Shown: positions 36,460-58,482 of the stretch, piece after piece
Layout: every line of letters starts with the position of its first letter
Position numbering within the stretch: the first letter of the stretch is position 1
Assembly (NCBI GenBank): GCA_964369695.1
Contig: CAYJGL010000001.1
Location: 123,450-187,449 of the forward strand
Direction: 5' to 3'
Source of the DNA: an uncultured Clostridium sp.
Lineage (GTDB): Bacteria; Bacillota; Clostridia; TANB77; CAG-508
DNA length: 64,000 nucleotides
Made by a program: the position numbers and the translations under genes
Notes under the pieces: generated by a model
The model's database searches: none
Seen by the model: only the letters and a program-made list of their open reading frames with translations
Told to the model about the DNA's origin: nothing

Positions 36460-37572
36460 TTATTTAATATATTTTTTTAATAATGGTATTAAATAATCTG
36501 TATAATATTTTGGTAAAGTATAGTTATTATAATTTTTCAATCCATTCAAATAAATGGTATATAAGTTTTCATCATTCAAATATTTATCTAACATAAGTTT
36601 AGAGTTTTCTATATCTATCATAGGAAATTCATATTTTCTATCTTCTTCTATTTCTTTATGCATTTCATCATATTTTGAAGTATATTTTTGTATATAAGGA
36701 AGTATTAAACAATTATCTCCATGAATCCAAGGATAAGTCCATTTCATATCTAAACCATCTTTTAACATAATAGCATTTTTAGATACCTCAAGATGCCTCA
36801 TGCATTTAGGATTAGTACCTTCTAAACTTACACATAATTTTGATTTATAACCAATATCTAGAGCTTCTGATATTGCCATATTATTGTGTTTATTAGTTAT
36901 ACGATCTAAGATAACTATATTATTCTTTGATTTTAATTTTTTTAAATCATTTTTATTTGTTATAATATTAAAATCTGAGAACTTATCATTTAAAAAATCT
37001 ATAAATCTCATTCTTGCTGGTATATTGTTCAAATTACCAAACATGAAGATATCAATTGGTCGATTATCAAATTCTTGTTTTGTGTGGATAGGATAATCTT
37101 TTTGAAGAATATTCAGATTACAAAATCTAGATTGAGGAAATAATTCAAAGGGATATATGTCTATATCAGATGCCATATATTCTTTTGTAGTTTTCCATGA
37201 ACCATCAATATAATTATAATAATTACTTTTAAATACAGCTTTTAAATTATTACCTAATTTTTCTTCAAATAAATATTTATTATTAAATTGTTGAACTTTT
37301 GATTTTATATCTCTTGTGCCTCCAAAATCTCGACGTTCACTACAATCAATATAAATAATTGGTTTATTTGAATTTGATAATAAAATAGCTTCTTGCTCAA
37401 TGCCGGTACCTTCAATACTACACCTATCATTATAAACAACAATAACGATATCAGAGTCTTTTATATTATTAACAATTTGAATTTCTGGAATAGTATCATT
37501 TAATAATTTTTTATGATACGATGCATTTAATGAATCTAATGCAGTATGAAGTGTTGTCCAATAAATTTTCAT
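36460..37572 (-). CDS. Hypothetical protein in glycan-modification cluster (370 aa)
   Basis: Long ORF flanked by glycosyltransferase and methyltransferase genes. No motif recognised. Confidence 0.8.
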   Translation of the reverse strand: MKIYWTTLHTALDSLNASYHKKLLNDTIPEIQIVNNIKDSDIVIVVYNDRCSIEGTGIEQEAILLSNSNKPIIYIDCSERRDFGGTRDIKSKVQQFNNKYLFEEKLGNNLKAVFKSNYYNYIDGSWKTTKEYMASDIDIYPFELFPQSRFCNLNILQKDYPIHTKQEFDNRPIDIFMFGNLNNIPARMRFIDFLNDKFSDFNIITNKNDLKKLKSKNNIVILDRITNKHNNMAISEALDIGYKSKLCVSLEGTNPKCMRHLEVSKNAIMLKDGLDMKWTYPWIHGDNCLILPYIQKYTSKYDEMHKEIEEDRKYEFPMIDIENSKLMLDKYLNDENLYTIYLNGLKNYNNYTLPKYYTDYLIPLLKKYIK

Positions 37573-37574
37573 AA

Positions 37575-38210
37575 TTATTTCCTTGATAAAATAAGTTGAT
37601 AAATATCTCGTTCTTTAATATCTTCATCTTTAATTAAACTTTGAGGAATTATAGAATATCCATTATTCAACATATATGGAATCAACTGTTTTCCTTTACC
37701 TTCATATGTATTAGTATTCAACACATCATCTATAATTATTAAAGAGTCCTTATTTAAATATTTTTCCATATAAAGAAATGCATTTAAATGATTTTTTTCA
37801 GAGTTTATATTTATTTCATCATCTAAATATAAACCATATTCAGGAACATGTATTGTATAATCCCATGCATCCAAATATAAAATATCAATATTTTGTTTAT
37901 TATCATAGTCATATTTAAAAATATCACAACATATTAATTCACTTCTTTTTTGAGATGCAGAATATTCTTCTAATAATAATTTGCAATTTTTCAATGCATT
38001 TAAATCTATATCAACAGATATTATTTTTCCTTTATTATTTTCTTCTAAATACCAATTCATAATCAGAGTAAAATAACCATCATGCATCCATGCCCATGGA
38101 TGTAAATTTCGAGTCATTCCAACTTCAAATATTAAAGGTTCTTTTATATTGTCTAAATAATTAAAAATATATTCTATATTTTGTTTACGACCATATGGTG
38201 GCTTTATCAT
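37575..38210 (-). CDS. Class I SAM-dependent methyltransferase (TylF/Methyltransf_24-like)
   Basis: IFEVGMTRN..., ISVDID, ILYLDAWDY, SLIIIDDV: the spacing pattern of O-methyltransferases in this family. Confidence 0.5.
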   Translation of the reverse strand: MIKPPYGRKQNIEYIFNYLDNIKEPLIFEVGMTRNLHPWAWMHDGYFTLIMNWYLEENNKGKIISVDIDLNALKNCKLLLEEYSASQKRSELICCDIFKYDYDNKQNIDILYLDAWDYTIHVPEYGLYLDDEININSEKNHLNAFLYMEKYLNKDSLIIIDDVLNTNTYEGKGKQLIPYMLNNGYSIIPQSLIKDEDIKERDIYQLILSRK

Positions 38211-38220
38211 AAATTTAACC

Positions 38221-38790
38221 TTATATCTTTTTCAAAATAATTTCAAAATGACAACATACATTTTGATTATAATCTAAAGTTTGATCAATTGAGGTTCCTA
38301 AAGAAAAATCATAATTTTGTAAATTTTCAAATATATCAATTATCTTAATTTTCGAATTAAACTTTTTCAAAAAATCAGTTATAACAACATTTTTAGGAAG
38401 TTCTGACTTTTCATTTAAAGTAAAAGACCATTTATGATCAGCATTCCATAATGAAGGCCATGATTTTTTTTCATAATACACTTCATGTGGGAGTACTATA
38501 TAAATATAACCACCAGGTTTACATATTCTAATCCAATTATCAAGAGCCATACACAAATCAGACATATGTTCTAAACAATGAGATGAATAGACGAAATCAT
38601 ATATATCATCTTCAATATTTGATAATGTTTGTGCATTACCTTGTTCTTTATCATAACAAAAAACAGTTCCATTTGGAATAACAAGAGGATCATCTCCTCC
38701 ACCAATATCAATACCATTACCTTTTAAATATTTATCAAAATATCCTTTTGAAAGTCTCATATCATAACATTTTGAAGTTTCTTTTGTCAT
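38221..38790 (-). CDS. Class I SAM-dependent methyltransferase (type 11-like)
   Basis: GIDIGGGDDPL (motif I), YDFVYSSHCLEHM, ICKPGGYIYIVLPH. Track start 38805 is TTG; ATG at 38790 follows GGGGAG. Confidence 0.65.
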   Translation of the reverse strand: MTKETSKCYDMRLSKGYFDKYLKGNGIDIGGGDDPLVIPNGTVFCYDKEQGNAQTLSNIEDDIYDFVYSSHCLEHMSDLCMALDNWIRICKPGGYIYIVLPHEVYYEKKSWPSLWNADHKWSFTLNEKSELPKNVVITDFLKKFNSKIKIIDIFENLQNYDFSLGTSIDQTLDYNQNVCCHFEIILKKI

Positions 38791-38792
38791 AA

Positions 38793-39659
38793 TCATTCTC
38801 CCCAATACTTATTTTTAATAGATGATATATCTTCAAAAAGAGTATCCATATATTTTAAATTATTACAAGAATATACTTTCATATTTTTTGAAAGTTTCCA
38901 ATTTGTATTTAAATTATTAACATCATTAGGATCAGATAATACTAGAGTTGGACATATGAATTGAGTCCATACATATAAAAAAGTTGCAGGAGTTATACAA
39001 ATAGCAGCATCTTTTGTATATTCTAAAACTTGACGAACAGATAATTGATTTCTTAAATCAATACATCTATTTTTATTTGGAAAATTATCTTCTATTCCTA
39101 TTATTGATACTTCAAATCTATTTCTTATTAATTCTTGTTCTATACGACACCATTCCATATAAGATCTATTTCTTTTTGGAAAATGCGAATGCCATGCAGA
39201 TCTTCTTAAAATAATTGCCTTTTTGGAGTTTTGAGGTTTTGGAAGTATACCTAATAACGGCATAGTCATATTATCATATCTTTTTGTATTAACCGCTCCA
39301 TCAATAAAAGGTATATCTTCCGATAAATGTTTTTTAGCTTTCATTATTTCTGGTATTTGACAAGCTATATCTCCCCCACGTCCAGATGAATCATAAAAAT
39401 AATGAGCTATTCTTCCATTATCAAACCAATATGATAATAAATTATCTACAACTACTCGTATTTTCGGTTCAATATTTCCTTGAATAGGATATGAATGAAT
39501 TATAATCCATCTATGATCCGGATATTTGTCTAATATATAATTAAATTTAGTACTAGCATGTATAGTATCACCTAATAGTCCAGTCAAACGAATACAAACA
39601 TATTTTCCTAATAAATCAATATCATAGATAGAAGAAAGAGGTTTTATTTTATATCTCAT
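38793..39659 (-). CDS. GT9 (heptosyltransferase)-like glycosyltransferase, divergent
   Basis: N-terminus CIRLTGLLGDTIHASTKFNYILDKYPD (GT9: ilvi....lGDvl...p.l..lk..yP). Overall layout aligns by eye with WaaC, but the DTG..H segment is not conserved. Confidence 0.4.
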   Translation of the reverse strand: MRYKIKPLSSIYDIDLLGKYVCIRLTGLLGDTIHASTKFNYILDKYPDHRWIIIHSYPIQGNIEPKIRVVVDNLLSYWFDNGRIAHYFYDSSGRGGDIACQIPEIMKAKKHLSEDIPFIDGAVNTKRYDNMTMPLLGILPKPQNSKKAIILRRSAWHSHFPKRNRSYMEWCRIEQELIRNRFEVSIIGIEDNFPNKNRCIDLRNQLSVRQVLEYTKDAAICITPATFLYVWTQFICPTLVLSDPNDVNNLNTNWKLSKNMKVYSCNNLKYMDTLFEDISSIKNKYWGE

Positions 39660-43860: not shown

Positions 43861-44496
43861 TTATACGAATAATTTTATTAAACGAAATAATACATCTGTT
43901 ATGCTTTTTGTTTCTTTAGAAGTATATTTTAATCTAGTTAAAAATCGATCAATTAATTTAGTTATCAAATATATACTTCCACTAGTTAATGCTTGATTTC
44001 CTATTCTAGAAACATTTGAATATAATTGTTGATAACGAACATCTTCTCCGACCATATATTTTTGAAATTTAGAAGGTAAATCATATTTATTAGCATAATG
44101 TAATATTGTTTCTGCTTTTTGATTAACATTAGAATCATTAGGATGTGCTTTTTTATAATTATTAACAACGTATCTGATTGTTGAAGAACCATGTCCTATA
44201 ATTGATCCTATCAATACCAATCCTAATAACAATAATAATTTATTAAGTTCAGTATCCATACTTGAATTGTCTAAATTGTCATTTCTATGATTATTATGTT
44301 GATGGTGTTGATGATGTTGATGACGATGTTGATTATGATGTTGATTATGATGTTGATTATGATGTTGATGACGATGTCGATTATGATGTTGATTATGGTA
44401 TTGATGATTTCTATTATATTGATTATAATAATTTCGATTATCAATACTTTCAGATATATAATCTAAAGAATATAATAATTGATGAATATCCCTCAT
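43861..44496 (-). CDS. His/Gln-rich protein with one TM segment; weak version of the N-terminal tag
   Basis: MRDIHQLLYSLDYISES..., then HQYHNQHHNRHRHQHHNQHHNQHHNQHRHQHHQHHQHNNH, then LLLLLGLVLIGSIIG. Confidence 0.7.
   Translation of the reverse strand: MRDIHQLLYSLDYISESIDNRNYYNQYNRNHQYHNQHHNRHRHQHHNQHHNQHHNQHRHQHHQHHQHNNHRNDNLDNSSMDTELNKLLLLLGLVLIGSIIGHGSSTIRYVVNNYKKAHPNDSNVNQKAETILHYANKYDLPSKFQKYMVGEDVRYQQLYSNVSRIGNQALTSGSIYLITKLIDRFLTRLKYTSKETKSITDVLFRLIKLFV
44290..44410. repeat. 12-bp-unit imperfect tandem repeat (GATGTTGATTAT) encoding a His/Gln/Asn tract
   Basis: Read directly. Also generates the shadow ORFs in the track. Confidence 0.8.
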
Positions 44497-44523: not shown

Positions 44524-45456
44524 TTATCCTATTGTCTCATTTAAATATTTGAAATTATAAGATAGATAATTATTAATATAATCATAAATACTTTCATTCA
44601 AATCAAGACAAACATGATCACTATATTGATTAAGTTTAGACACATCTGCTTTAATATAATGTGGATAATTATTATGCAATTTAATAGGAAGGTATGTTAA
44701 TTGAATATTATATTCTCGTATATTCAAAGTTAAAGAAATATAATTCACAAGATCTTTGAAAGATTTTGCTACACCACTTCCTATATTAATTATTCCATGT
44801 GCATCATCATTATTCATAATATTGAATAAATGTTGATTAAAGTCTTTAATATAAATATAATCTCGACATTGATCTCCATCTTTAAAATTATGATCAATTG
44901 ATTGATATAATGAGACCATATTTTTGTCTTTTAAACTTCGATATATTTTAAATATAATACTAATATAATCTTGTTTATGATATTCATTAGGTCCAAACAC
45001 ATTAAATGGTTTTATGTTTATAACTTTATCTAAATATCCTTTTCGAAATAACCAATTATCAAATAAATTTTTATTATATGCATAGTAATTTAAAGGTTTT
45101 AATTTTGGTGGCATAATATCATCACTAAAACCATTCTCACCATTTCCATATGTTGAAAATGAAGATATATTTATAAATTTAATATTTTTATCATAACATG
45201 CTGAACATAAATTTTTTGAAAATTGCATATCATTATTATTTTCAGAATTTATGTTTATAACACATTTAATATCATCATTCAATTCAGTAAAATGATCTTT
45301 GGAATAAACATCTATAAATTGTTGTTTATTCAAATTCTTCCAATTCTTTTCTGTTATTGTATCAATGCCTATGATGTCTGTTATGTTTTCTTGATTTAAT
45401 TTTGTTAAAAAAGAGCTTCCTAAAAAACTACATATTCCATTTATTAAAATAGACAT
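44524..45456 (-). CDS. ADP-L-glycero-D-manno-heptose 6-epimerase (HldD)-like SDR
   Basis: Aligns by eye along the whole length with HldD: ITDIIGID, ISSFSTYG, PLNYYAYNK (YxxxK), FNVFGPNEYHK, CRDYIYIKD, GIINIGSGVAKSF, YIKADVSKL. The Rossmann motif is altered (NGICSFLGS versus GGAGFIGS). Confidence 0.6.
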   Translation of the reverse strand: MSILINGICSFLGSSFLTKLNQENITDIIGIDTITEKNWKNLNKQQFIDVYSKDHFTELNDDIKCVININSENNNDMQFSKNLCSACYDKNIKFINISSFSTYGNGENGFSDDIMPPKLKPLNYYAYNKNLFDNWLFRKGYLDKVINIKPFNVFGPNEYHKQDYISIIFKIYRSLKDKNMVSLYQSIDHNFKDGDQCRDYIYIKDFNQHLFNIMNNDDAHGIINIGSGVAKSFKDLVNYISLTLNIREYNIQLTYLPIKLHNNYPHYIKADVSKLNQYSDHVCLDLNESIYDYINNYLSYNFKYLNETIG

Positions 45457-45472
45457 AGTATAATTTTCCTTA

Positions 45473-46504
45473 TTATTTATAAAAATAATTTTCTAATATA
45501 TCATCATCCCACATATTTATCTGACATGTATATGGTCCGTAACCAATATGAGTTGGTTTTCTCAAATCAGGATTATTTTTAAATAAATATAAATCTTCTT
45601 CTCTCATGTAATTTATAAAATTTAAAAATATATAATCTGGTTCTAAAAATTCTATCATTCTTTTATATTGCATTTTACTAAATGTAAAAATTCTTCTAAC
45701 TTTATTAGTAACAGTAGTATATTCTTTTTCTAATTTCAAATCATCCCAAGATAATTCTATACTATCATCATAAGTTGGGCCACTCGTTCCTATAATTTTA
45801 CCATTTTTATCTGTAGGATTAGCAACTCTAATAGGATATGTTCGAACTGTTGTTATACACGATCCCATATATTTTGGATGCAAACACAAATCTGCCAATA
45901 CAGCACTTGGTATAACATCAACAGAAGTGCAATATGGATAAGATAATCCACTATTAATACCCAAATCAAATCCTTGACCAGTTTCAACTAATATATTTAA
46001 ATCTAAATCTAAATATTCTTTTAAATTAAATGATTTTTGTATAAATCTTTTTAAAGCTGGAGTATTCTCTGCTAATGGATTGGTTCTTAAAATTTTACTT
46101 GAACGAGCAGAACCACTACCAGATAATGTACTTCCAATATTTGTAAGAATATTATTTTCTGCTAGTTTATCATTATTTTCAATAACGGCAATTCTTGGAT
46201 GAAGTATGATTCTATCTTCATCTATATCAAATTTTTTAATTTCATGGAGAAATAAATCAACATCAATAACACATCCAGCAGACATGTATATTGTTGATCT
46301 TGGTTGTATAATTGCAGTTACTGGAATTAGTTTTGTTATATATTTTATATCATTATAATAAAAAGTATGTCCAGCATTTGGAGATAATCTTCCTACAACA
46401 ATATCAATATGATAATTTTCAGCTATATATGCTGCCATTAAACCTTTTCCTGTACTTCCAAATTGGCCATCAATAATCATATTTGCTTTGCCTGATTGGA
46501 TCAT
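45473..46504 (-). CDS. Adenylosuccinate synthetase family protein, short archaeal/PurZ-like form
   Basis: DGQFGSTGKG (PurA GTQWGDEGKG), SPNAGHT (NAGHT), GSTLSGSGSARSSK (GTTGRGIGPAYEDK), VETGQGFDLGINSGLSYPYCTS ([22 protein letters not shown]), TTVTNKVRR (GATTGRRRR). 343 aa. Track start 46528 is TTG; ATG at 46504. Confidence 0.7.
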   Translation of the reverse strand: MIQSGKANMIIDGQFGSTGKGLMAAYIAENYHIDIVVGRLSPNAGHTFYYNDIKYITKLIPVTAIIQPRSTIYMSAGCVIDVDLFLHEIKKFDIDEDRIILHPRIAVIENNDKLAENNILTNIGSTLSGSGSARSSKILRTNPLAENTPALKRFIQKSFNLKEYLDLDLNILVETGQGFDLGINSGLSYPYCTSVDVIPSAVLADLCLHPKYMGSCITTVRTYPIRVANPTDKNGKIIGTSGPTYDDSIELSWDDLKLEKEYTTVTNKVRRIFTFSKMQYKRMIEFLEPDYIFLNFINYMREEDLYLFKNNPDLRKPTHIGYGPYTCQINMWDDDILENYFYK

Positions 46505-46528
46505 TGATTTATTTCTCCATTTGATCAA

Positions 46529-46966
46529 TTAACTTAAAGATTCTTCTGGAAATGAAACGCCTATATTATTTTGAGAAACTCTTACAGTTAATCCATTCAC
46601 CTCAATATGCATTTTTAATGGAAAATGATTAAGAGTCAAATCTTCTTCTATAATATCAGATATTTCTTTTAATTCTTTTGGTAATTCATATTCAAAAAAT
46701 AATTTACGATTATGCGGATCATTAATAAATAATTGTTTATACAATAATTGTTCAAACAATTGTATTTTATCTTCACTTAAATTATTTGTTAAATATGCAC
46801 TATTCAAAATTTGATTAGTTTCATTCAATGAATATGTTCTAAATTGATTAGTTAGTGTTGATTTTTTTCTTAAACAATCTCCTATAAAATAGGAACTGAT
46901 CATACAACCATAATGATTTTGAGTTGCATTAGTTAAACCTGAACCTAATTGTTCACTCCAAGACAT
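46529..46966 (-). CDS. Hypothetical protein (145 aa) immediately upstream of the PurA-like gene
   Basis: ORF abutting the next gene. No motif recognised. Confidence 0.7.
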   Translation of the reverse strand: MSWSEQLGSGLTNATQNHYGCMISSYFIGDCLRKKSTLTNQFRTYSLNETNQILNSAYLTNNLSEDKIQLFEQLLYKQLFINDPHNRKLFFEYELPKELKEISDIIEEDLTLNHFPLKMHIEVNGLTVRVSQNNIGVSFPEESLS

Positions 46967-46978: not shown

Positions 46979-49900
46979 TTATTTATAAATTTCTTCAAAT
47001 ATTTTTTCTATTTTGGATATATATGAATAATGAATTCTACGACCTAAAATATAATTTGCTACTGAATCAGAAAAACCATCATCAAACAATGCTTGTATTA
47101 TTTCTGTCCATATGTTAATATAATTTTCATCATTTACAGATACAGCATAATTGCTATATGGTAATCCCAACTTATGAATAATATCATTAGTACATGATCC
47201 ATTAATGTCAAATTCAATTAATATTTCTTTAAAATCATCTATTGTTATATATGTTGGAACCCAAATTTGATAATATTGTAATAAAACATGATATTGTAAA
47301 GTTGCATTTTTAAGACCATATGATATACCATCATGATATGATAAAATAAATGGTAAATGATTAGTAGCATGTTTTATTAAAGTATGATCTATAGTTGTAC
47401 TATCTATTAGAGACATGTCCATCTGTTCAACACAATATTGTAATTCTTCTTCTGTTGAATTAACGTCTTTTAATACATCATATATTCCACCCAAATCTAC
47501 AGTTACGTCTAAAACATCATCATAACTGGCTTTTGAATATTTTAAAAGAATTTGATCAAACATATCTGCATCAATATTACTTTCAAGTATAACTTCTTTA
47601 ACTAATTCTTTATTTGATTCAAGAGGTGATCTCACTAAAAAAGTAAGATAACCATTTTGTAATAATATATCTGGCATAAATGATTGAGCTAATTTTATTA
47701 ATAAAATATCTATAACTTTAGCTTCAATTCGTTTAGATTTTAATAAAGATATTAATGCTGATATATCATCAAGTTCACTTTCCGGATTAGATAAAATGGA
47801 AATTGTCCATGCAAGTTCTTCTGATATATCTAATATATGTTCATGCAGATTTATATGATTATATATTAAATTATCAAATACTTTAATATGAGCATTATTT
47901 GTTTTTAATTTATTTAATATTGTTTTTAATTCATCAATCTCTAGTTCTTTTATTAATTGACCATATAATCCATCTGTTCCAACTCGTGAATAAACTGATA
48001 GATAAAGTTCTCCAGTATAATATATTAAAACATCATCTATTTTATCAAACGGAGTATTATGTGACTTCATAATTGAAATTATTGAATTTATCGTAGTTAC
48101 TGTCAATTTATCATCAGATAATTTATTATAAAAATTACTAATAATTCCAATTTTTTCAAAAATCCTTGGGAAATGAATAGAACCATACTTTGATAAAATA
48201 ACATCAATAACATCACTACTAAGTCCATCATTATATGCGTCAGTTAAAGATCTTATGACATGATCTTCTTTGTTAACATCATTTAAAGAATTATAAACAT
48301 TAGACGTAAATTCTAATAATACTGGTAAATGGCTTCTTGCATATTTAAATATTATTTTGTCTATCATGTCTGGATGAACTTCAAATTGAGTCAATTTATC
48401 CAATGCATATTGCATTTCATCTACTTTAGTAGATGATGTTTTTAAACTTTTATAAATACCATCAGTATATTCAAGAACATGTGGTAAATGAACTTTACCA
48501 TATGTTAAAACAATATCATCAATCAAATCATCAGAAAGGTTTGCTGTTTTTAATTTATTTATAACATATTCTAATTCTTCTAAAGTGCTATTTTCATTTT
48601 GTAGAGTTTCAGATATTTCAGATTTAATTTCAAATATATTTGGTAAATATTTTACTCCATATTCTAAAATAATATCATCTATTTGATATGAAGGTATATT
48701 TTTACTAACAATATAATCAACAATAGAAGTTGCATCTTCTAATCTTGAATTTTCACTTATAAGACGGGAATATACTCCATTTGTTAGCGTTAATATAGAT
48801 GGTAAAAATGAATTAGCATATTCAAAAACAATTTCATCAATTAAATGATCATTTACTTTATATTCTTGTATTTTTTTAATATCTGCTGTAATTATTTCAA
48901 AATCTGTTTCCGAATTATTAAAATGATTATAAATTTCACTTATATTATTTGCTATTCCAAATATATTTAAATAATTTTCATGACCATATGTTAATAAAAT
49001 ATCATCGACTAATTCAGGTTCGATAGTTTCTAATCTAATCTTTTCTATATTTGATGTTAATTCATCTAAAGAACTTTCATTATTCTTAAGAACATCAGCT
49101 AAACCAGTTATATTATAAGATAATAATTCTGGCATTAAATGTTGACCATATTTTAATAAAATAGTATCTATAACATCAATAGGAACTTCATGCAATTTAA
49201 GATAATAATATGTGTTCAATCCCTGTTCTAATGTTGTTGCTTTTTCTAAAGGTTCTTTAATATATGGTTTATAAGCCCATAAATAATCACTAAATCTAGA
49301 GGCATATCTCAATAAGATTTTATCAACAGTTAATGGATCAATCGGACAAGAAGCTATATAATTCATTATAACACTAGCTCTTTCTAATGTCAAATCTGGA
49401 TCTATTAATTCTAAAGATAAACCAAGATTATAATCTAAAGCTTCTGGTAAAAATCTTTCACCATAGTGTAAAAAAATATCATCAATAATTTCTGGACAAA
49501 GATTATGTTGATCCAAATAATCAATTAAAGAAGTAGTATCTTCTAAAGTTGTCATAGGATTGATCATATCATTATAAAATAAAGATTTTTCACTAAATAA
49601 ATTATTGATTTGATTTTTACCATAACGGAAAATAATATCATCATATAGTGCTGGTGTTATATTATCAATATTAGTTAAAGTATCTCTTACTGAAAAAATT
49701 TCATCATCTTTGGCATCATAATCACAAGCTACTGTAACTAAACCATCAGGAACATACTCTAATAAAGTTGGTAGAAATTTATTATAATATATTAATGTTT
49801 GATCAATTTTATCAGAAGGTACCCCAATACTATGCAAATAATCAACTCGAGATAATGCAGTATCAAAAGAAGTTGTATCAATTAATAATTCATAATTTTG

Positions 49901-50752
49901 AGGAGTTTCTTGGATTATAGTTGGCAAGAACTGTGAACCCCATCTTAAAATACTTCTTTCTAAGAAATAATATTTATCAAAATCATCTTTATCTTTATTA
50001 ATTTCATCAGCAAATGTATAAATAAATTGAGGAACGTCCATTGCTTGCTCTAATGTCGTAGTTCCATTATGATTTAATAAAATATCTCTATATCCTGGTA
50101 GAGTACATAAACATATATTTTTTTCATGTTTAATACCAGTAAAAGTTTTAGGTGGCCAATGTTCCCAATAATCTGTATATGACCAATCAAAATCAGTATA
50201 GTTAAATAACGGAGCATCTGGTTTTTCACCTATATCAATATTTGGTTCTCTTATTAAATTAGGAATTACTGGCTTGTTTATTCCTTGTTTGGTATATTCC
50301 CCACTTAAAAGACGACCACTCATATCTTTCCAATTACCAAGATATGCATCTATACAATATTCTATCTCAATAGGTTTTTCTTCAAGAGTTTCATAATCTG
50401 TTAATGGAGGTCTAGAACAATAACCATCTTGCCAACGATCTTCCATTTGAGAATTAGTATTTAATCTCTTTAATTTAGTTTCTGAATGATCTGATCTTTG
50501 TTCCCAGTCTCCTTTATCCTCTTCCCATTTTTCTACAGGAGTTACTAATTTACCCTGATCATTGAAAAAAGTAGGATCATCTTGTCTGTAATAAGTAGCA
50601 TCTGGAGGTTGAACTCTTGTTGGGGATAATTGATCATCATCATTATCATGAATACTTTTTAATATTAATGGATCGATATAAGGTTCTTCTGAATTTTTTT
50701 CTATATTCTCAAAATTTTCATTTGTTTGACACATGAAGTTTAACTCCTTCAA
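46979..50752 (-). CDS. 1257-aa protein with about 16 tandem ~55-residue helical-type repeats
   Basis: Repeat core (I/V)D(D/x)I(L/I/V)(L/F)xYGxxxLPxxL preceded by (T/S)LE(E/D)xxxxIxxL. Examples: IDDIFLHYGERFLPEAL, IDTILLKYGQHLMPELL, IDDIILEYGVKYLPNIF, IDDIVLTYGKVHLPHVL, IDKIIFKYARSHLPVLL. Confidence 0.85.
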   Translation of the reverse strand: MKELNFMCQTNENFENIEKNSEEPYIDPLILKSIHDNDDDQLSPTRVQPPDATYYRQDDPTFFNDQGKLVTPVEKWEEDKGDWEQRSDHSETKLKRLNTNSQMEDRWQDGYCSRPPLTDYETLEEKPIEIEYCIDAYLGNWKDMSGRLLSGEYTKQGINKPVIPNLIREPNIDIGEKPDAPLFNYTDFDWSYTDYWEHWPPKTFTGIKHEKNICLCTLPGYRDILLNHNGTTTLEQAMDVPQFIYTFADEINKDKDDFDKYYFLERSILRWGSQFLPTIIQETPQNYELLIDTTSFDTALSRVDYLHSIGVPSDKIDQTLIYYNKFLPTLLEYVPDGLVTVACDYDAKDDEIFSVRDTLTNIDNITPALYDDIIFRYGKNQINNLFSEKSLFYNDMINPMTTLEDTTSLIDYLDQHNLCPEIIDDIFLHYGERFLPEALDYNLGLSLELIDPDLTLERASVIMNYIASCPIDPLTVDKILLRYASRFSDYLWAYKPYIKEPLEKATTLEQGLNTYYYLKLHEVPIDVIDTILLKYGQHLMPELLSYNITGLADVLKNNESSLDELTSNIEKIRLETIEPELVDDILLTYGHENYLNIFGIANNISEIYNHFNNSETDFEIITADIKKIQEYKVNDHLIDEIVFEYANSFLPSILTLTNGVYSRLISENSRLEDATSIVDYIVSKNIPSYQIDDIILEYGVKYLPNIFEIKSEISETLQNENSTLEELEYVINKLKTANLSDDLIDDIVLTYGKVHLPHVLEYTDGIYKSLKTSSTKVDEMQYALDKLTQFEVHPDMIDKIIFKYARSHLPVLLEFTSNVYNSLNDVNKEDHVIRSLTDAYNDGLSSDVIDVILSKYGSIHFPRIFEKIGIISNFYNKLSDDKLTVTTINSIISIMKSHNTPFDKIDDVLIYYTGELYLSVYSRVGTDGLYGQLIKELEIDELKTILNKLKTNNAHIKVFDNLIYNHINLHEHILDISEELAWTISILSNPESELDDISALISLLKSKRIEAKVIDILLIKLAQSFMPDILLQNGYLTFLVRSPLESNKELVKEVILESNIDADMFDQILLKYSKASYDDVLDVTVDLGGIYDVLKDVNSTEEELQYCVEQMDMSLIDSTTIDHTLIKHATNHLPFILSYHDGISYGLKNATLQYHVLLQYYQIWVPTYITIDDFKEILIEFDINGSCTNDIIHKLGLPYSNYAVSVNDENYINIWTEIIQALFDDGFSDSVANYILGRRIHYSYISKIEKIFEEIYK
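47150..49850. repeat. Coding tandem array of ~165-nt (~55-aa) repeat units, about 16 copies, diverged
   Basis: Periodic recurrence of the ID.I...YG...LP motif in the translated protein. Coordinates are approximate. Confidence 0.7.
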
Positions 50753-50800: not shown

Positions 50801-50838
50801 ATAAAATAAATAATTTTTTGTTTGACAAAGGAGGAAAA

Positions 50839-52584
50839 ATGTCAGATAATACTAATTTAGATGATAATATTAAAATTTATTTTCCATTTAAAGAATTCAG
50901 AACTGATCAATATGAAACTATAAAAACGATACTTGAAAGTTTTATAGATAAGAATAATGACAAGTTTATTTTAGAAGCTCCAACCGGAACAGGAAAATCA
51001 GTAATCGGATATACTGTTGGAAAAGTTCTTCATGATTACTATAAAAAGAACGATGATAAATATGAATTTAAACCTTCCAGTCCTCCAATCATAATATGCA
51101 CTTCAACAAAACAATTACAACAACAATATGCTGATACATTCAAAAGATTTAATGTTAGAAGCATATGGTCATCGCAAAATTATAATTGTGCAAATCCTCA
51201 AAACAAAGGAGATGATGTTAAATATGGACAAAATAATTGTCTTGGAACAAAATGTCCATTTCTATCAAAATGTACATATTATATAGATCTTAAAAAATTT
51301 AATAAGGCGGATGTTGGTATTTGTAATTACCACTATTTTTTAAATAAAAAAACTTTAAGTTCGAAAATATTAATTTTAGATGAAGCACATAATCTACAAA
51401 ACATATTATGTGATTATTCATCTTTAAAATTATCAAAATGGTTTTTCGACAGAATAACTTCTCAAATAAAAAAATATTCTGTTAAAGTAAAATTAAAAGA
51501 AACTGAATTATTTGAATCTTTTCAAAAATTATTTTTCATTCCAATTGATAAATTAGAGAATGGAGTATTTTATGAATATGCAGAGGAACTTTTAACAAAA
51601 TTAAAAGATATAAATAAAAAATTATCAGCAGAATATGAAGAGATTAGAAATCAATTTAATGATGAAGAGGATTTAGAAAATAATAAATTATTACACAGCC
51701 AATTAAAAAATATTGGAATAATTTTAGATTCTTTAAAATCAACTATAAATAAATTAAAGAATTATTTAAAATCAATAGTCAAATGGGTTGTATCAGAATT
51801 AGATATAACAAAATATAAAATTACAATTAAACCTTTAGAAATTTCAGAATGTATGAAATTGTTTGAGAATAATGGTACTAAAATATTATTCATGTCTGCA
51901 ACAATATGTGGACACAAACAATATATTCAAGAATTAGGATTAGACGGATTAGTAGATACATTATCTACGAAATGTTTATTTCCAATTCAAAACAGAAAGG
52001 TATACAATCTTCAATCTGCTTTTTTAAATTATAAAAACAAAAAAGAAGTTTTGCCAGTAATGGTTAAAGAGATTGATAAAATCATTAACTGGATGACCTC
52101 GAATTGGACAAAACCAATAGGAGGAGTAATTCATACTGTTAGTTTTGAAAATGCTCATTTTATAAAACAACATTCTCAATACAAAGATGTTTTATTTACT
52201 CCTGATAAAAATGAAATGCTAAATTTGAACAATATATTAAAAGAGAGAGGCCCTACTATTCTAAATTCTCCTTCTATTTTAGAAGGAGTTGATTTAATGG
52301 ACGATTTATCTCGTTTTCAAATATTTATGAAAGTTCCTTATGCACATTTAGGAGACAGATGGGTTAATCTAAAAAAAGAATTAGATCCTATTTGGTACTC
52401 AAGAGATACAATTATTAAAATAGTTCAAGGAAGTGGACGTTCTATTCGTTCCATGGAAGATTGGGCTTGGACATTTATATTAGATTCAAATTTTAATATA
52501 TTACTTAATCGAAATAGTCAATTATTTCCAACATGGTTTAAAGAATCTATTATAGGAAATTGTCAAGAGGAGAATTTTAAATGA
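50839..52584 (+). CDS. DinG/XPD (Rad3)-family Fe-S DNA helicase
   Basis: LEAPTGTGKS (motif I), ILILDEAHNL (DEAH). Cys cluster CANPQ...CLGTKCPFLSKC lies between them. C-terminal GSGRSIRSMEDWAWTFILDSNF (motif VI). Track start 50818 is TTG; ATG at 50839 follows AAAGGAGG. Confidence 0.8.
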   Translation: MSDNTNLDDNIKIYFPFKEFRTDQYETIKTILESFIDKNNDKFILEAPTGTGKSVIGYTVGKVLHDYYKKNDDKYEFKPSSPPIIICTSTKQLQQQYADTFKRFNVRSIWSSQNYNCANPQNKGDDVKYGQNNCLGTKCPFLSKCTYYIDLKKFNKADVGICNYHYFLNKKTLSSKILILDEAHNLQNILCDYSSLKLSKWFFDRITSQIKKYSVKVKLKETELFESFQKLFFIPIDKLENGVFYEYAEELLTKLKDINKKLSAEYEEIRNQFNDEEDLENNKLLHSQLKNIGIILDSLKSTINKLKNYLKSIVKWVVSELDITKYKITIKPLEISECMKLFENNGTKILFMSATICGHKQYIQELGLDGLVDTLSTKCLFPIQNRKVYNLQSAFLNYKNKKEVLPVMVKEIDKIINWMTSNWTKPIGGVIHTVSFENAHFIKQHSQYKDVLFTPDKNEMLNLNNILKERGPTILNSPSILEGVDLMDDLSRFQIFMKVPYAHLGDRWVNLKKELDPIWYSRDTIIKIVQGSGRSIRSMEDWAWTFILDSNFNILLNRNSQLFPTWFKESIIGNCQEENFK

Positions 52585-52780: not shown

Positions 52781-52816
52781 AAAGTGGGTTCTATAATAGA
52801 ACCCACTTTTTTTATT
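52781..52816. terminator. Bidirectional rho-independent terminator at a convergent junction
   Basis: 13-bp perfect stem AAAGTGGGTTCTA (52781-52793) / TAGAACCCACTTT (52797-52809), followed by TTTTTTATT. Confidence 0.8.
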
Positions 52817-53450
52817 TATAAATTAATGGCAATTTAAGATGAAATGGAAAATGATTATAATCATGATATATTTTATAACAATAATGAGAACATGAAATTA
52901 TTAAATTATTGCCTTCTAAACTATAATTATTGTAAAATCCTATTTCTTTAAATAAATTTAAATTAAGGTTATTATCAAATTCAAAATAACCTATTATTTT
53001 TTTAGACATTATATTATTTTTTTCTAATATACAATGTAATACTTCGATTCTATTATCACAAATAACACACAATGTGTAAATTATATTTTTTTTAGTGTTA
53101 TAATGAGGATTGCCGCTAAGTATATAAACTTCTTTTTCATTACATTTATATATCCCACTACCATACAATCCATCTTGTCTAATAATAGGTATAATTTTAT
53201 TTTGATTTAAACAATCAGTATTGAATAAAAAATCATAAGTATAATAATCATGATATACAACATCTTCATCATCTTCATAATCAAAATCAAAATATTTAAC
53301 ATAACATATATTATTTGGATATTGTAATGATAAATCTAGAACATCATCATCTGATATTGTTCTTTCTAAATGATCTTCATATTCATTAAAATCTATTTCT
53401 TTTAAAGTTAATTTAGATATATAATTATCATAGATATATTCTGAAATCAT
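52812..53450 (-). CDS. Hypothetical protein (212 aa)
   Basis: ORF in a short minus block. No motif. Confidence 0.7.
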   Translation of the reverse strand: MISEYIYDNYISKLTLKEIDFNEYEDHLERTISDDDVLDLSLQYPNNICYVKYFDFDYEDDEDVVYHDYYTYDFLFNTDCLNQNKIIPIIRQDGLYGSGIYKCNEKEVYILSGNPHYNTKKNIIYTLCVICDNRIEVLHCILEKNNIMSKKIIGYFEFDNNLNLNLFKEIGFYNNYSLEGNNLIISCSHYCYKIYHDYNHFPFHLKLPLIYK

Positions 53451-53468
53451 AATTATTTAATCCTAAAA

Positions 53469-53834
53469 TTAAAATAAAAAAGTTATATTTTGATATACTT
53501 TTAATTGATATATGTTTGGTTGTATTATTTTTTCAAAAATATTATATTTATTAGCTAATCCTGCTCCTAATTTTGATATTAAAAAAGTATTATTTTGTTT
53601 TGTTTTAATTTCTAATATTAATTTATTCAATTCATTTATAAATACAGGATAGTATTCATCTGGTTTATAAAAACTAGAAGGATTATTATTTGGATATTTC
53701 TTTGTTATAAAACCAAAAGTATTAGGTTCATCTCTTAATTTAGCAGCTCCCCCTTTTCCTTTACGTAATAAATTATCACCATAAACAAATATTAAATTTG
53801 GATATTTTTTTAAATAATCGGATGTTATATACAT
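53469..53834 (-). CDS. Hypothetical protein (121 aa) with N-terminal IFVYGDNLLRKGKGGAA motif
   Basis: The motif resembles a conserved viral/phage small-protein family (ifvfG.N..g..G.GaA) whose name I cannot place. Confidence 0.65.
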   Translation of the reverse strand: MYITSDYLKKYPNLIFVYGDNLLRKGKGGAAKLRDEPNTFGFITKKYPNNNPSSFYKPDEYYPVFINELNKLILEIKTKQNNTFLISKLGAGLANKYNIFEKIIQPNIYQLKVYQNITFLF

Positions 53835-55072
53835 TATATATCCTTTTTATTTTCTTCTAATTCCAATTTAGAACCATTCATCATCAAAGATAAAGAATAT
53901 TCTTCAGCGAATTTTCTTATTTTATCTTGAGATAAATATGATAATTCTTTTGCAAATTCTAAAACTATAGCATTGAAAAATTGAGAGTATTGATTTAATA
54001 AAGATTCATAATTTTTATTTATAGTACTTAAAATATTCTTTTCTGTACTGTTGATTTTTCTCGAACGTATTAATTTTAATAATTCTTGATTTGTATTTTC
54101 ATAAGAATATTCATTTATAAGTTTTAAAGTTCTACTTTTATCTAGATGTTCTATAATAGGATTTTGTTGAATAGGACAATTTTCTATATTATTTCCTTCA
54201 ATCGCAGATATAGTACAACAAGATCCATAACCTACATTTGGATTAAATAAAAATGAACTCCACTGTTCAAACGTCATAAATATATCATATAACGGAGCTT
54301 TATTTGGTATTGGTATGAATTTAGAAATGTTGTCTTTAATTATTTCTACAGCTTCATATATTTGTAAGTTTACAATATTGATAGGAGTATATGAAACACC
54401 ATAAATATTTATTTTATCATTTTTTATATTATTTACTTTTATAACTCCAAATTTATTATTTCTATTAATATCGAGTTGATCTTCTATATTAACGTCTTTT
54501 ATATTATAACTATTTAACTTTGCAAAATTATTTACTTCCATCATTATATCAAAACAAATTTTTTCAAATATCTCATACAATTCACATTCAACATAAACTG
54601 AATTGCTTTTTAATAAATTAATATTATCTTTAATATTATTAAATATTTTATTTTTTAATTTAACATCAATATTCATATTCCCTAATTCTTGAAAAAATGA
54701 ACTATCTATTTGTGCTATTTTTTTGAAATATTCTGATATTTGTTTATACATTGATATTTTAGATTTTTTGGAAGATTGATCTTCTTGTGTTTCTATTTTA
54801 TTTCCATTCACATCAACATAAAACAATAAAGCACATGGAATATAAGTATCTGTATTAATAGAAGATACTAATAAAGCTAACTGTGAAGGATGCATATTTA
54901 AACTGAATAACTTTTGAGTAGGATGATAATGAGGATAACAATATTCGGATTGGTTTAATGAAATTTGACAAACCATATGAGAAGATTTACTTTCTATTCC
55001 AACAAAAATAGGTTTATTATAAATGGTATTGATTAAATTTAACATCCCATATGATGGATGATTTGTAAGCAT
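53834..55072 (-). CDS. Hypothetical protein (412 aa)
   Basis: Long ORF with a 1-nt overlap with the downstream gene. Confidence 0.8.
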   Translation of the reverse strand: MLTNHPSYGMLNLINTIYNKPIFVGIESKSSHMVCQISLNQSEYCYPHYHPTQKLFSLNMHPSQLALLVSSINTDTYIPCALLFYVDVNGNKIETQEDQSSKKSKISMYKQISEYFKKIAQIDSSFFQELGNMNIDVKLKNKIFNNIKDNINLLKSNSVYVECELYEIFEKICFDIMMEVNNFAKLNSYNIKDVNIEDQLDINRNNKFGVIKVNNIKNDKINIYGVSYTPINIVNLQIYEAVEIIKDNISKFIPIPNKAPLYDIFMTFEQWSSFLFNPNVGYGSCCTISAIEGNNIENCPIQQNPIIEHLDKSRTLKLINEYSYENTNQELLKLIRSRKINSTEKNILSTINKNYESLLNQYSQFFNAIVLEFAKELSYLSQDKIRKFAEEYSLSLMMNGSKLELEENKKDI

Positions 55073-55105
55073 GATATATCTCCTTTAAAATTTTATTATT
55101 AATAT

Positions 55106-55696
55106 CTATATTATTTTTTTATATAATAAATCTAGTTTAATAAATATTTTCTTAAGAGTATACCATGTGTGATATAATTGTTTATCTAAAAGTTTATAAT
55201 GACGCCAAAAACCATTTCTTATAAATTCAAATTCTTCTTTTTTTACATTTTTATATAATAATTTAAATTCGTTAAATGTTATCACTAAATTTAAATAATA
55301 TTCATCTATATCTTTCCATTTATCTTTTGTCATTTTTATTTTCTTACTTAATATAGATTCCATCTCTAATAATCCTGGATGATTATGAAAATGGTGATAT
55401 AATTGAAATTGTATTAATTTTGATAATAATAAAAGATACCTATCTTTTTCATTCATATAATATGATGTTGTAGAAAAAGTTATTATAGGTATAGCTTTAT
55501 CCAAATCTCTAGAATTTATGATTATATTATTTTGTACTAACGGCAGAAATGTATATTTTTTATATAAAAATTCTATATTTTGTTTAATTTCTAATTCATA
55601 TATATTATCTGGATTAGCAACAATTACATCAACATCTGGTTTTAAATAAGATTTACAAATATCATAAGCTTCAGATTCATAATTATTAGAAGACAT
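55106..55696 (-). CDS. Hypothetical protein (196 aa)
   Basis: First gene of the short minus block. Confidence 0.7.
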   Translation of the reverse strand: MSSNNYESEAYDICKSYLKPDVDVIVANPDNIYELEIKQNIEFLYKKYTFLPLVQNNIIINSRDLDKAIPIITFSTTSYYMNEKDRYLLLLSKLIQFQLYHHFHNHPGLLEMESILSKKIKMTKDKWKDIDEYYLNLVITFNEFKLLYKNVKKEEFEFIRNGFWRHYKLLDKQLYHTWYTLKKIFIKLDLLYKKII

Positions 55697-55726
55697 TTTA
55701 AAATCCTTATGTTTTTTTGATATTCA

Positions 55727-55740
55727 ATATATAGATATAT
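55727..55740 (+). promoter_or_regulatory. Promoter-like motif ATATATAGATATAT
   Basis: 33 nt upstream of ATG 55774. Confidence 0.35.
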
Positions 55741-55773
55741 GATATAAACATTTAACCCACAAAGGAGGCACTT

Positions 55774-55977
55774 ATGTGGGATTGGTTTAAAAATCTTGGT
55801 CGGCCTAAAAAGCCGACAAACATTGATTACCTGAACGCAATATTAGATCGCGTTCAGGTAGAAATGACAGTAGACCAACATGGATTAGTTGGTCCAGTCA
55901 AAATAGTTATAGGAAAAAAAGATGTTACAACCAACACCGTTGATACAACAATATCAACGGAAGCAACGGAAGATTAA
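55774..55977 (+). CDS. 67-aa ORF in GC-richer island; may be coding, a structured RNA, or both
   Basis: AAAGGAGG 5 nt before ATG and a promoter-like motif upstream support coding. Four strong hairpins inside the ORF argue for RNA/DNA structure (see the hairpin-cluster feature at 55799-55960). Confidence 0.45.
   Translation: MWDWFKNLGRPKKPTNIDYLNAILDRVQVEMTVDQHGLVGPVKIVIGKKDVTTNTVDTTISTEATED
55799..55960 (+). other. Cluster of four consecutive hairpins (possible structured RNA or protein-binding palindromes)
   Basis: H1: GTCGGC/GCCGAC, 55799-55817. H2: TACCTGAACGC/GCGTTCAGGTA, 55828-55860, 11 bp perfect. H3: GACCAAC/GTTGGTC, 55873-55894. H4: CCGTTGATA/TATCAACGG, 55937-55960, 9 bp perfect. 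Confidence 0.6.
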
Positions 55978-55979
55978 AC

Positions 55980-56031
55980 TTTTTAGAAGATGAAAAATAT
56001 ATTATAATTTTTTCATCTTCTAAAAATTTTT
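55980..56031. terminator. Bidirectional rho-independent terminator at a convergent junction
   Basis: 18-bp stem TTTTTAGAAGATGAAAAA (55980-55997) / TTTTTCATCTTCTAAAAA (56009-56026), followed by TTTTTATTT. Confidence 0.8.
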
Positions 56032-56257
56032 ATTTCATTCTAAATCCCATTTGAGGAAGTTGTCCAGTTGGAGTAGGAGATGCTGCTGGATTTCTATAAA
56101 TATTTTGAGTCTGTGACCTTTGATTTATATTTGATGGTCTTTGAGTTGGCGATCCACTTCTTGCTACTTGAGAATATCCTCCACCAGCAGAAGGTTGCCA
56201 TAATCTTTCAAATAATTCAGTAGAAAAACTTTCAAAAACCAAATCATTAATAGTCAT
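56030..56257 (-). CDS. N-terminally tagged small protein (MTINDLVFESF...)
   Basis: 75 aa, Pro/Gln/Ser-rich remainder. Confidence 0.65.
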   Translation of the reverse strand: MTINDLVFESFSTELFERLWQPSAGGGYSQVARSGSPTQRPSNINQRSQTQNIYRNPAASPTPTGQLPQMGFRMK

Positions 56258-56271
56258 ATTTTACTCCTTTA

Positions 56272-57709: not shown

Positions 57710-58063
57710 ATGAAAATTATAACAGATATATTTGAAGGAATAATATATGATGAATTGGAATATTCTAAATTAATTTCTAAAAGAATCATTCATTCAACAT
57801 TATATCATAATATAACTTTAAAAAGTCTTAAATTTAAATTAGGACTTTTTAATTTTATTATTGAAATAGATTATATAATAATAGCAGAAAAGTCTTATAT
57901 TTCAAAGATAAAAACTATAAATATTGATTTAAACATTATTAAAAATCATAATTTAAAAAATGATAAATATATAAAAAAACTAATAACTATAAGATTTAAT
58001 CAAATTTTACAACAACGACTAGATTTAATTCAAATATATGAATTATGTAAATTAGAAAGATAA
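57710..58063 (+). CDS. Tandem paralog family member A
   Basis: AAAGGAG SD. C-terminus ...QQRLDLIQIYELCKLER (divergent family motif). Confidence 0.7.
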   Translation: MKIITDIFEGIIYDELEYSKLISKRIIHSTLYHNITLKSLKFKLGLFNFIIEIDYIIIAEKSYISKIKTINIDLNIIKNHNLKNDKYIKKLITIRFNQILQQRLDLIQIYELCKLER

Positions 58064-58073
58064 GGATTATTTT

Positions 58074-58472: not shown

Positions 58473-58482
58473 GAGGTATTAA

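Follow-up and report, generated by a model that had tools for sequence, protein, structure and literature searches.

We have analyzed a 64-kb stretch of DNA, referred to as the window, that forms part of a contig of 263,784 bp (CAYJGL010000001.1) and carries on its minus strand, at 45473..46504, a gene for a protein of 343 amino acids. As judged from open reading frame (ORF), profile, structure and tree evidence, the product is a homologue of PurZ, the N6-succino-2-amino-2'-deoxyadenylate synthase of phages with 2-aminoadenine (Z) in their DNA, and the gene is called purZ in the following. From purZ the window, which is the part of the contig covered by this analysis, reaches 45 kb in one direction and 17 kb in the other, with a further ~200 kb of the contig beyond it; the exact 343-residue protein and its upstream neighbor are both recorded on this one contig. 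In the ORF listing the gene appears as a minus-strand frame at 45473..46528 with a TTG start. The ATG at 46504, which yields the 343-residue product, is favored because direct reading of the sequence places a GGAG Shine-Dalgarno element at 46515..46518 (minus strand), 10 nt upstream. Genes are tightly packed at this point, as the ORF preceding purZ ends at 46529 and its stop lies 24 nt ahead of the purZ ATG. A first-pass annotation made from the sequence alone had described a 343-residue protein built on the scaffold of adenylosuccinate synthetase (PurA), and this is borne out by the ORF starting at ATG 46504 and by a match to Pfam family PF00709 (Adenylsucc_synt; 80.9 bits, 1e-22, cutoff 27).

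All sequence motifs quoted in that annotation were located in the protein. The P-loop GQFGSTGKG spans residues 13-21 (46442..46468, minus strand, as for all purZ coordinates below), and alignment with reference enzymes equates Phe15 and Ser17 with F12 and S14 of PurZ from phage PhiVC8. The codon of Ser17 lies at 46454-46456, and in a MAFFT alignment this residue stands opposite the catalytic Asp13 of PurA, as the earlier reading of the GDEGKG motif had proposed. NAGHT (residues 43-47, 46364..46378) holds the conserved catalytic histidine, His41 in Escherichia coli PurA, and further along the chain come the GSTLSGSGSARSSK motif at residues 124-137 and GQGFDLGINSGLSYPYCTS at residues 176-194 (45923..45979), a nucleotide-monophosphate binding segment that corresponds to the Q190/Y203-C204-T205 region of PurZ from phage S-2L, where the roles of these residues have been described (PMC8342488). 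Residues 224-248 (45761..45835) comprise the sequence PIRV and an insertion specific for PurZ, the respective alignment column being filled in PurZ and a gap in PurA and in PurZ0, the related enzyme of Arthrobacter phage Wayne. This segment holds a valine equivalent to V241 of S-2L PurZ, for which exclusion of the 2'-hydroxyl group has been proposed (PMC8342488), and a tyrosine equivalent to Y244 of PhiVC8. In the loop TTVTNKVRR (residues 263-271, 45692..45718), the tip of the aspartate-contacting loop, Thr263 is the counterpart of T262 of PhiVC8 that accommodates the 2-amino group. FLNFINY (residues 293-299, 45608..45628) is the predicted adenine pocket for an ATP donor, with N295, F296, N298 and Y299 matching N294, F295, N297 and Y298 of PhiVC8 PurZ; F295 and Y298 of the latter stack the adenine of ATP (bioRxiv 10.1101/2025.10.22.683976). 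This pocket aligns with the guanine-specificity element T-K/M-L-D of PurA and PurZ0. The correspondence had originally been drawn by eye, and with references included the T-K-L-D of E. coli PurA indeed falls onto N-F-I-N.

The determinant alignment comprised the window protein, PurZ from PhiVC8, S-2L, PMBT28 and Bm1, the PurZ0 sequences Wayne and 7VF6, and PurA from Pyrococcus horikoshii and E. coli. In this set the P-loop reads F-G-S-T-G in the window protein, FGSEA in PurZ0 and WGDEG in PurA, and the Y244 insertion is occupied in the window protein but a gap in both PurZ0 and PurA. The T262 position is a threonine in the window protein and in PurZ0, but a glycine in PurA, and the donor pocket is N-F-I-N-Y as opposed to TMLDQ in PurZ0 and TMLDK (P. 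horikoshii) or TKLDV (E. coli) in PurA. W252 of PurZ is present as well. For S-2L PurZ the determinants have been given as S23, V241 with the A242-W250 insertion (2'-OH exclusion), the loop tip T273-T276 and N305/F306/Q308 (PMC8342488), and a serine at the Asp13 position was reported for 100% of phage PurZ and PurZ0 (Poubanne et al.). The window protein thus unites the superfamily fold in its short form with the serine P-loop, the F12 and T262 equivalents, the adenine pocket, the valine with its insertion and, as outlined below, a placement in the PurZ clade. It has GSTGKG and NFINY in place of the G-S-E-A-K-G P-loop and T-M-L-D pocket that constitute the PurZ0 signature, and Asp13, T-K/M-L-D and scores above the equivalog cutoffs, the hallmarks of PurA, were not found in it.

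Comparison with profile hidden Markov models (HMMs) returned the NCBIfam PurZ model NF038379 as the top model (230.4 bits, 2.6e-68), whereas the archaeal PurA model NF003295 gave 160.4 bits versus a cutoff of 368 and the bacterial PurA models all remained at or below 100 bits (TIGR00184, 100 versus 395). PHROG 1211, '2-aminooxy adenylosuccinate synthetase', was matched at 5.5e-55, and among sequences of the Protein Data Bank (PDB) PhiVC8 PurZ (8e-47) ranked before S-2L PurZ (5e-41), PurZ0 7VF6 (5e-30) and P. horikoshii PurA (1e-28). An AlphaFold2 model calculated from 32 relatives reached a predicted local distance difference test score (pLDDT) of 91.5 and a predicted template modeling score (pTM) of 0.91. 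In a Foldseek search with this model, S-2L PurZ (7odx) was the top match with a template modeling (TM) score of 0.85, followed by PhiVC8 PurZ (0.81-0.82), archaeal PurA (0.81) and PurZ0 (0.78). The tree was obtained by neighbor joining rather than maximum likelihood, from 100 distinct sequences and 324 columns that covered the window protein, relatives from IMG/VR and from metagenome-assembled genomes (MAGs), and references; note that two of the references, P. horikoshii PurA and 7VF6, were rebuilt from HMMER alignment printouts and are slightly truncated. The tree has a split with a bootstrap value of 0.965 between PurZ on one side and PurA, a cellular clade and PurZ0 on the other, and the window protein lies on the PurZ side, in the PurZ crown, between characterized PurZ enzymes and many lineages with DatZ, MazZ and DpoZ. 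As evidenced by residue states, HMM rank, fold rank and tree, the protein is very probably a PurZ-type enzyme. The suggestion in the first-pass annotation of an ATP-using PurZ rather than a GTP-using PurA is thereby backed, and the profile and phylogeny comparison proposed there did not group the protein with the IMP (inosine monophosphate)-specific PurA enzymes. Its other label, a novel nucleotide-modifying ligase, is not needed for an active site that does not depart from that of PurZ.

Proteins L102-L113 (from Mycobacterium, Microbacterium, Hydrogenophaga, Sphingomonas, Dehalococcoidia and other MAGs or genomes) form a separate PurA-like clade with a bootstrap value of 0.99 that branches between archaeal PurA and PurZ0 plus PurZ. 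It has a hybrid signature, with a Y-G-S-E-G P-loop and a T-F-x-D-Y donor pocket and without the PurZ insertion.

Among characterized enzymes, PhiVC8 PurZ (DgsS, deoxyguanylosuccinate synthase; PDB 6FM1/6FKO/6TNH) likewise has 343 residues and the same fold, at ~38-39% identity to the window protein. Residues F12, S14, T15, G16, P233, Y244, W252, T262-T265, K267, N294, F295, N297 and Y298 are identical in both proteins. The window protein differs in a lysine for G256, a threonine for S273 and a longer insertion after Arg-Val. This longer insertion ('RVAN...') is shared with S-2L PurZ (PDB 7ODX), to which the window protein is ~38% identical. Also common to the two are TTVT at the tip of the loop and a pocket of the form N-F-x-(N/Q)-Y, although S-2L has a glutamine in the adenine pocket where the window protein and PhiVC8 have an asparagine. 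PurZ0 (Wayne, PDB 7VF6), accompanied by the partners DutZ, DmtZ and DUF5664, is likewise derived from PurA and directed towards deoxyguanosine monophosphate (dGMP), and it shares the serine at the Asp13 position, but it has the GSEAKG P-loop and the TMLDQ pocket, lacks the PurZ insertion and forms a separate clade. The short archaeal PurA of P. horikoshii (PDB 5K7X/2D7U), the presumed ancestor of PurZ, has the same short architecture and the same fold, but retains aspartate in GDEGKG, has a glycine at the T262 position and a TMLD pocket, uses IMP and GTP, and is only ~30% identical.

The window has a GC content of 24.3% throughout, in agreement with the ~75% A+T noted earlier, and a megablast of 20 kb of it against GenBank phages gave no match; its source is a new, very AT-rich, jumbo-sized tailed phage. 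A database search with the protein retrieved 1,658 relatives, the closest being 46-60% identical, as compared to 35-39.5% for characterized PurZ, and several of these closest relatives reside on contigs of 228-247 kb. A pattern scan of IMG/VR based on the single protein returned nothing, and a pattern taken from the clade alignment then gave matches. Among the nearest relatives in IMG/VR (45-57% identity) are some on contigs of 111-287 kb, and the tier at 35-43% identity is mostly found on contigs of 20-60 kb. In the tree, the window protein belongs to a clade J1 with a bootstrap value of 0.93, together with L014 (254 kb), L007 (247.5 kb), L018 (221 kb), L016 (200 kb), L005, L013 and L009. Of the J1 contigs from IMG/VR, the three longest measure 200-254 kb, and the contigs of clade J include IMGVR_UViG_3300005282_000007 (254 kb) and ENA VALL22-1 scaffold_14 (247.5 kb). 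A second group from large contigs of up to 287 kb, J2, has a bootstrap value of 0.41, and the two are referred to jointly as clade J. J1 is a PurZ subclade known only from metagenomes. Clade-J PurZ is absent from 50,697 GenBank phage records, the best identity among 199 matched records being 39.5%; the GenBank records matched are of ~40-67 kb and all stay below 40% identity to the window protein. These phage records contained no jumbo-phage PurZ, and in the searchable literature no link of PurZ to jumbo, huge or megaphages was found, the Z phages described there being Siphoviridae or Podoviridae. A possible tie of the clade to AT-richness was rejected, as its loci span 24-60% GC.

Across 17 clade-J loci and ~119 metagenomic relatives, the determinants of PurZ show no or almost no variation, at a mean column identity of only ~51%. 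Ser17 is kept by 17/17 loci of clade J and by 118/119 of the metagenomic relatives, the remaining one having a gap; N43, G45 and H46 are invariant across the 32-sequence clade alignment, as are P224-I225-R226-V227, which are followed by a 16-residue insertion with the Y244 equivalent, and the FLNFINY pocket does not vary within clade J. The ratio of nonsynonymous to synonymous substitution rates (dN/dS) is 0.07 for the closest pair in the clade, distant pairs being saturated, and the clade is under purifying selection. With a GC content at third codon positions (GC3) of 9.6% and a codon-usage cosine of 0.971 versus the other genes of the window, purZ is among the most typical of them, and a recent horizontal acquisition was rejected on these grounds. 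The gene has been resident in the genome for a long time, is under selection and presumably encodes an active enzyme. Scans for promoters and terminators gave matches no more frequent than in shuffled sequence.

From these sequence features a pathway can be proposed. The enzyme would bind dGMP and phosphorylate its O6 with ATP (or deoxyadenosine triphosphate, dATP), upon which L-aspartate would displace the phosphate to yield N6-succino-2-amino-2'-deoxyadenylate. Adenylosuccinate lyase (PurB) and nucleotide kinases of the host would convert this product to dZTP, the deoxynucleoside triphosphate of Z, and the phage replication machinery would insert dZTP opposite thymine, so that the phage DNA would then carry Z for at least part of its adenine. 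That the gene encodes a functional PurZ-class enzyme and that Z takes the place of at least part of the phage adenine is the reading towards which we lean, at slightly better than even chances; catalytic activity, host enzymes for the later steps and Z in the packaged DNA are all inferred from the sequence. In known Z phages, DatZ removes dATP, and MazZ, DUF550 or DutZ supply dGMP. In the present phage, dATP removal and dGMP supply may be encoded in the other ~200 kb or by unrecognized proteins, or they may be dispensable, and in the last case the substitution would be partial. The partner sets were independently acquired and differ between lineages (PMC12884076), and the PurZ0 lineage shows that such a set is replaceable. 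That this jumbo phage and clade J have Z genomes without any known partner (DatZ, MazZ/DUF550, DutZ/DmtZ, DpoZ) is a tentative proposal that we hold to be somewhat less probable than its opposite.

Several findings weigh against this favored reading. On the level of the protein, the score for NF038379 remains below the curated cutoff of 300 bits, and one position flagged by metaGPA, G256, is a lysine, the sole departure from the PurZ consensus besides the threonine for S273; judged by its sequence, the protein is a divergent PurZ member that automatic annotation would not call PurZ. On the level of the genome, the partners are missing. Local HMMs, built from the proteins of PhiVC8, S-2L, PMBT28, Bm1 and Wayne, the DatZ model of which finds 59 ORFs elsewhere, were used together with Pfam scans, and no DatZ, MazZ-1/2, DUF550, DutZ, NDT or PolA was detected in the 64-kb window; the Pfam scans, of 53 ORFs of at least 90 residues, showed no HD_3/YfbR, DUF550, MazG, dUTPase, NDT or PolA domain. 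This confirms the caveat of the first-pass annotation that neither MazZ nor DatZ was recognizable in the window. A polymerase gene (DpoZ or PrimPol) is likewise missing there, the replication genes being located outside the window. In the S-2L genome datZ, mazZ and purZ are three adjacent genes, and in PhiVC8, a 39-kb podovirus, purZ stands beside mazZ-2, datZ, a primase gene and dpoZ, whereas around the window purZ on its ~264-kb contig none of these is found within 17-45 kb. Measured against the Z-cluster pathway of PurZ, DatZ and MazZ or DUF550, often with DpoZ, the window holds the central enzyme in an apparently competent form, and the partners are absent from the window as well as from the flanks of every clade-J relative.

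This absence is a property of the whole large-phage clade and not of the window alone. DatZ or MazZ occur within +-10 kb of purZ in 0/15 J1 and J2 loci, ~13 of which are independent (L026/L027 and L013/L009 are near-duplicates), versus 40/49 other PurZ loci of at least 12 kb (Fisher p = 8e-9), and of the other PurZ loci in IMG/VR, 66/67 carry one or more of DatZ, MazZ, DpoZ and DutZ in the fetched flank. When entire IMG/VR contigs were scanned with a DatZ motif, 65 loci were obtained, all on contigs of at most 91 kb and none on a clade-J contig; the motif, taken from an 8-sequence alignment, has a recall of 0.49 on known DatZ loci, so that a divergent DatZ would escape it. If canonical DatZ were carried, the probability of zero matches on ten large contigs would be ~1e-3. 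The corresponding MazZ-2 scan, of which 80 of 156 matches were considered, used a motif that is that of a generic MazG. At the clade-J loci only ordinary-looking dUTPases were seen: a strong 'DutZ' match in L016 (3e-62) was rejected, as this ORF was itself part of the profile and is 30-36% identical to real DutZ, barely above ordinary dUTPases. Except for purZ, no ORF of the window has a homologue in any clade-J locus, and there is therefore no conserved neighborhood. In E. coli as a test system, PurZ by itself is weak: incomplete Z-clusters led to less substitution, and losing both datZ and mazZ had a synergistic effect (PMC8342488). Two further objections come from the gene's relatives. In L028 (IMGVR_UViG_3300028549_001461, 161 kb), a Dam-type N6-adenine methyltransferase of the D12 class with a DPPY motif is encoded at 7920-8771, 1.2 kb upstream of purZ, and the complete PurZ signature is also present in bacterial housekeeping operons on very large MAG contigs. 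The presence of PurZ therefore need not mean a Z genome.

In favor of the Z reading, several clade-J loci hold purZ among genes of nucleotide metabolism, for ribonucleotide reductase (RNR), dUTPase and thymidylate kinase. Close relatives of the window gene have PARP, Macro and RNA ligase genes (L007, L009) and many small unknown genes beside it. The module in L028 is ordered PolA - dUTPase - RNR - Dam - purZ, and it raises the question whether adenine is still present in this phage DNA or whether Dam is able to methylate Z. As to the bacterial genes, the arrangement cmk - purZ - ham1 (ITPase family) - rpsA was found in L096:5189-9680 (DJLZ01000001.1, a 994-kb contig from the proteobacterium UBA6503) and is collinear in a second alphaproteobacterial MAG (L095:5290-9636), with 49-81% identity over the four genes. 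A Micavibrio contig of 1.0 Mb (L098:5081-9376) has mazG - purZ - IMPase-family gene - hflX, and a further PurZ-signature gene lies on a Bdellovibrionales contig of 610 kb (L094:5959-7020). These loci are not obviously prophages. They point either to cells that use Z nucleotides themselves or to PurZ-type enzymes with a function unrelated to Z, and in the Ham1 neighbor a new analogue of MazZ or DatZ may be present. The searchable literature contained nothing relevant on PurZ in connection with Bdellovibrio or Micavibrio.

The alternative that survives best accepts the PurZ chemistry and assumes a genome without Z or with traces of it, a stand-alone enzyme then serving to manipulate the deoxypurine pool during infection. 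It might drain dGMP and (d)ATP, produce dZ nucleotides as a poison or a mark for processes of the host, counter a nucleotide-sensing defense or salvage deoxypurines. Such a role would suit the absence of DatZ and MazZ throughout the clade and a solitary purZ with no conserved neighbor, and PARP, Macro and RNA ligase genes, as in L007 and L009, typically occur in islands for host manipulation or counter-defense. The Dam-like enzyme of L028 implies that this phage still offers adenine for methylation, bacteria with PurZ-state genes in housekeeping operons are unlikely to have a whole Z genome, and S-2L PurZ is also a dATPase (PMC8342488). Nevertheless, some Z in the DNA would be hard to avoid once dZTP is made, because ordinary polymerases incorporate it; the PrimPol of S-2L does not select between the two, and Z did enter the DNA of E. 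coli (PMC8342488). Moreover, no such role has been shown for any PurZ, and partner genes may be located in the ~200 kb beyond the window. We regard this alternative as unlikely, although we have given it more weight because of the bacterial PurZ-state genes.

It is quite improbable that the protein is an auxiliary PurA-like enzyme with ATP as the donor that would make (deoxy)adenylosuccinate from IMP or dIMP and thereby provide more (d)AMP for a genome of 75% A+T. A phage so rich in A+T does need much dATP, the PurA type prevails among the phage homologues of PF00709 in NCBI (481 in total, ~147 of them PurZ or PurZ0), and the bacterial chromosomal homologues could in principle be the PurA of the cell. 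In the window protein, however, Asp13, 99% conserved in genuine PurA, is a serine, the equivalents of T262 and F12 that give room for the 2-amino group are present, and so are the 2'-OH-excluding valine and its insertion; the PurZ HMM outscores every PurA model, the tree places the protein within PurZ, and the broad GC range of clade J does not tie the clade to AT-richness. An inactive relic or a non-catalytic protein, for which the lack of partners and the surrounding genes unrelated to nucleotide metabolism might speak, is very improbable in view of an intact ORF with a Shine-Dalgarno element, catalytic and binding motifs that are all invariant across the clade at 46-60% identity, the low dN/dS of the closest pair and a confidently predicted fold. 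An enzyme of the PurZ0 type, dGMP-specific with GTP as the donor as in Arthrobacter phage Wayne, shares the serine at the Asp13 position and T262 but is scarcely credible, given GSTGKG rather than GSEAKG, N-F-I-N-Y rather than T-M-L-D-Q, the PurZ insertion, the separate clade of the PurZ0 pair (bootstrap 1.0) and the weaker match of 7vf6, as compared to PurZ, by sequence and fold.

What is new here is the jumbo-phage context of a PurZ with no Z-cluster nearby, in a clade known from metagenomes only. If Z is present, as the favored reading has it, the question is whether a phage can build Z-DNA with a different support set, having shed its partner neighbors or never had them. These would be the first jumbo phages with Z-DNA, and if none of the known partners takes part, their Z pathway would be differently partnered or independent of partners. 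Roughly three quarters of the base pairs would become pairs with three hydrogen bonds, and Z genomes would reach into an extremely AT-rich genome, where the consequences for melting, packaging and evasion of restriction are largest. Enzymes for dATP exclusion that are not yet known would be implied as well, and synthetic biology could make use of them. If Z is absent, the shortcut of database mining by which a PurZ homologue with Ser14 equals a dZ genome, an operational definition used in one recent preprint, would need revision, and PurZ chemistry would have a second physiological role, as the genes in bacterial housekeeping operons already hint.

Recognizable among the other genes of the window are an endolysin with GH108 and PG_binding_3 domains, a DinG/Rad3-like helicase, a UvsX-like recombinase, a protein with five PKD domains and giant repeat-containing proteins. 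Most large proteins of the window had no Pfam or PHROG match, and PHROG annotation of ten of them matched only the UvsX-like recombinase and one unknown family. The two immediate neighbors of purZ are those named in the first-pass annotation, an HldD-like epimerase and a 145-residue ORF. The former, downstream of purZ at 44524..45456 on the minus strand, is a short-chain dehydrogenase/reductase (SDR) resembling ADP-heptose-6-epimerase (PF01370, 5.6e-24; TIGR02197, 199.5 bits, 7e-59, below the cutoff of 274.6). It is not conserved beside purZ in the relatives and probably belongs to a glycan-type gene set rather than to a purine pathway. This set, at 33796-39659 and 44524-45456 on the minus strand, has features of glycan or sulfation metabolism and comprises an adenosine 5'-phosphosulfate (APS)-kinase family protein (2.8e-26), three ORFs resembling class-I S-adenosylmethionine (SAM)-dependent methyltransferases, a weak match to family 2 glycosyltransferases (GT2) and the SDR. 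The target of the set could be a surface glycan or perhaps DNA, and no link between it and purZ was found. The upstream neighbor, ORF145 (46529..46966, minus strand), is an ORFan with no Pfam, NCBIfam or PHROG match; it was considered as a hidden partner and rejected, as a search of 5.8 billion proteins returned only itself and no clade-J locus has a homologue. Directly upstream of ORF145 and purZ follows a 1,257-residue ORF (46979-50752, minus strand) with no Pfam match and with many degenerate repeats of ~60-70 residues of the type '...IDDIxLxYGxxxLPxxL...'. On the other side, between the endolysin region and the epimerase, a 211-residue ORF without a family match (43861-44496, minus strand) has a long low-complexity run rich in His, Asn and Gln (HHNQHHNQHHNQ...), followed by a hydrophobic segment.

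Further features were noted at a greater distance from purZ. The 367-residue product of 14583-15686 (minus strand) shows a strong full-length match to Volactin, a Pfam family with the actin fold (PF25216; 3.5e-76, 257 bits), and a weak one to MreB, which makes it a candidate phage actin-like cytoskeletal protein. A 1,545-residue ORF at 21257-25894 (minus strand) consists of four tandem modules of ~1.06-1.2 kb with 69-96% nucleotide identity and weak matches to F5/8 type C and Reelin subrepeats, and probably encodes a modular fiber or adhesin; the neighboring 1,180-residue ORF at 17299-20841 has BNR and Reelin-type matches. Between ~50750 and 56860 the coding strand switches repeatedly, from the minus strand up to 50752 to a DinG-like helicase on the plus strand (50818-52584), back to minus at 52812-56724 and to plus from 56860 onwards. 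The cumulative GC skew has its minimum at ~54-58 kb, and the region may mark the border between modules or an inflection related to replication. Finally, where the window is richest in A+T (17-20% GC), an array of 14 consecutive small ORFs of 117-183 residues lies at 57710-63942 on the plus strand, several of them weakly paralogous with a common C-terminal '...YNPxEYExxKL' motif, and one, at 60466-60933, with a Fic-like HPFPDGNKR sequence.

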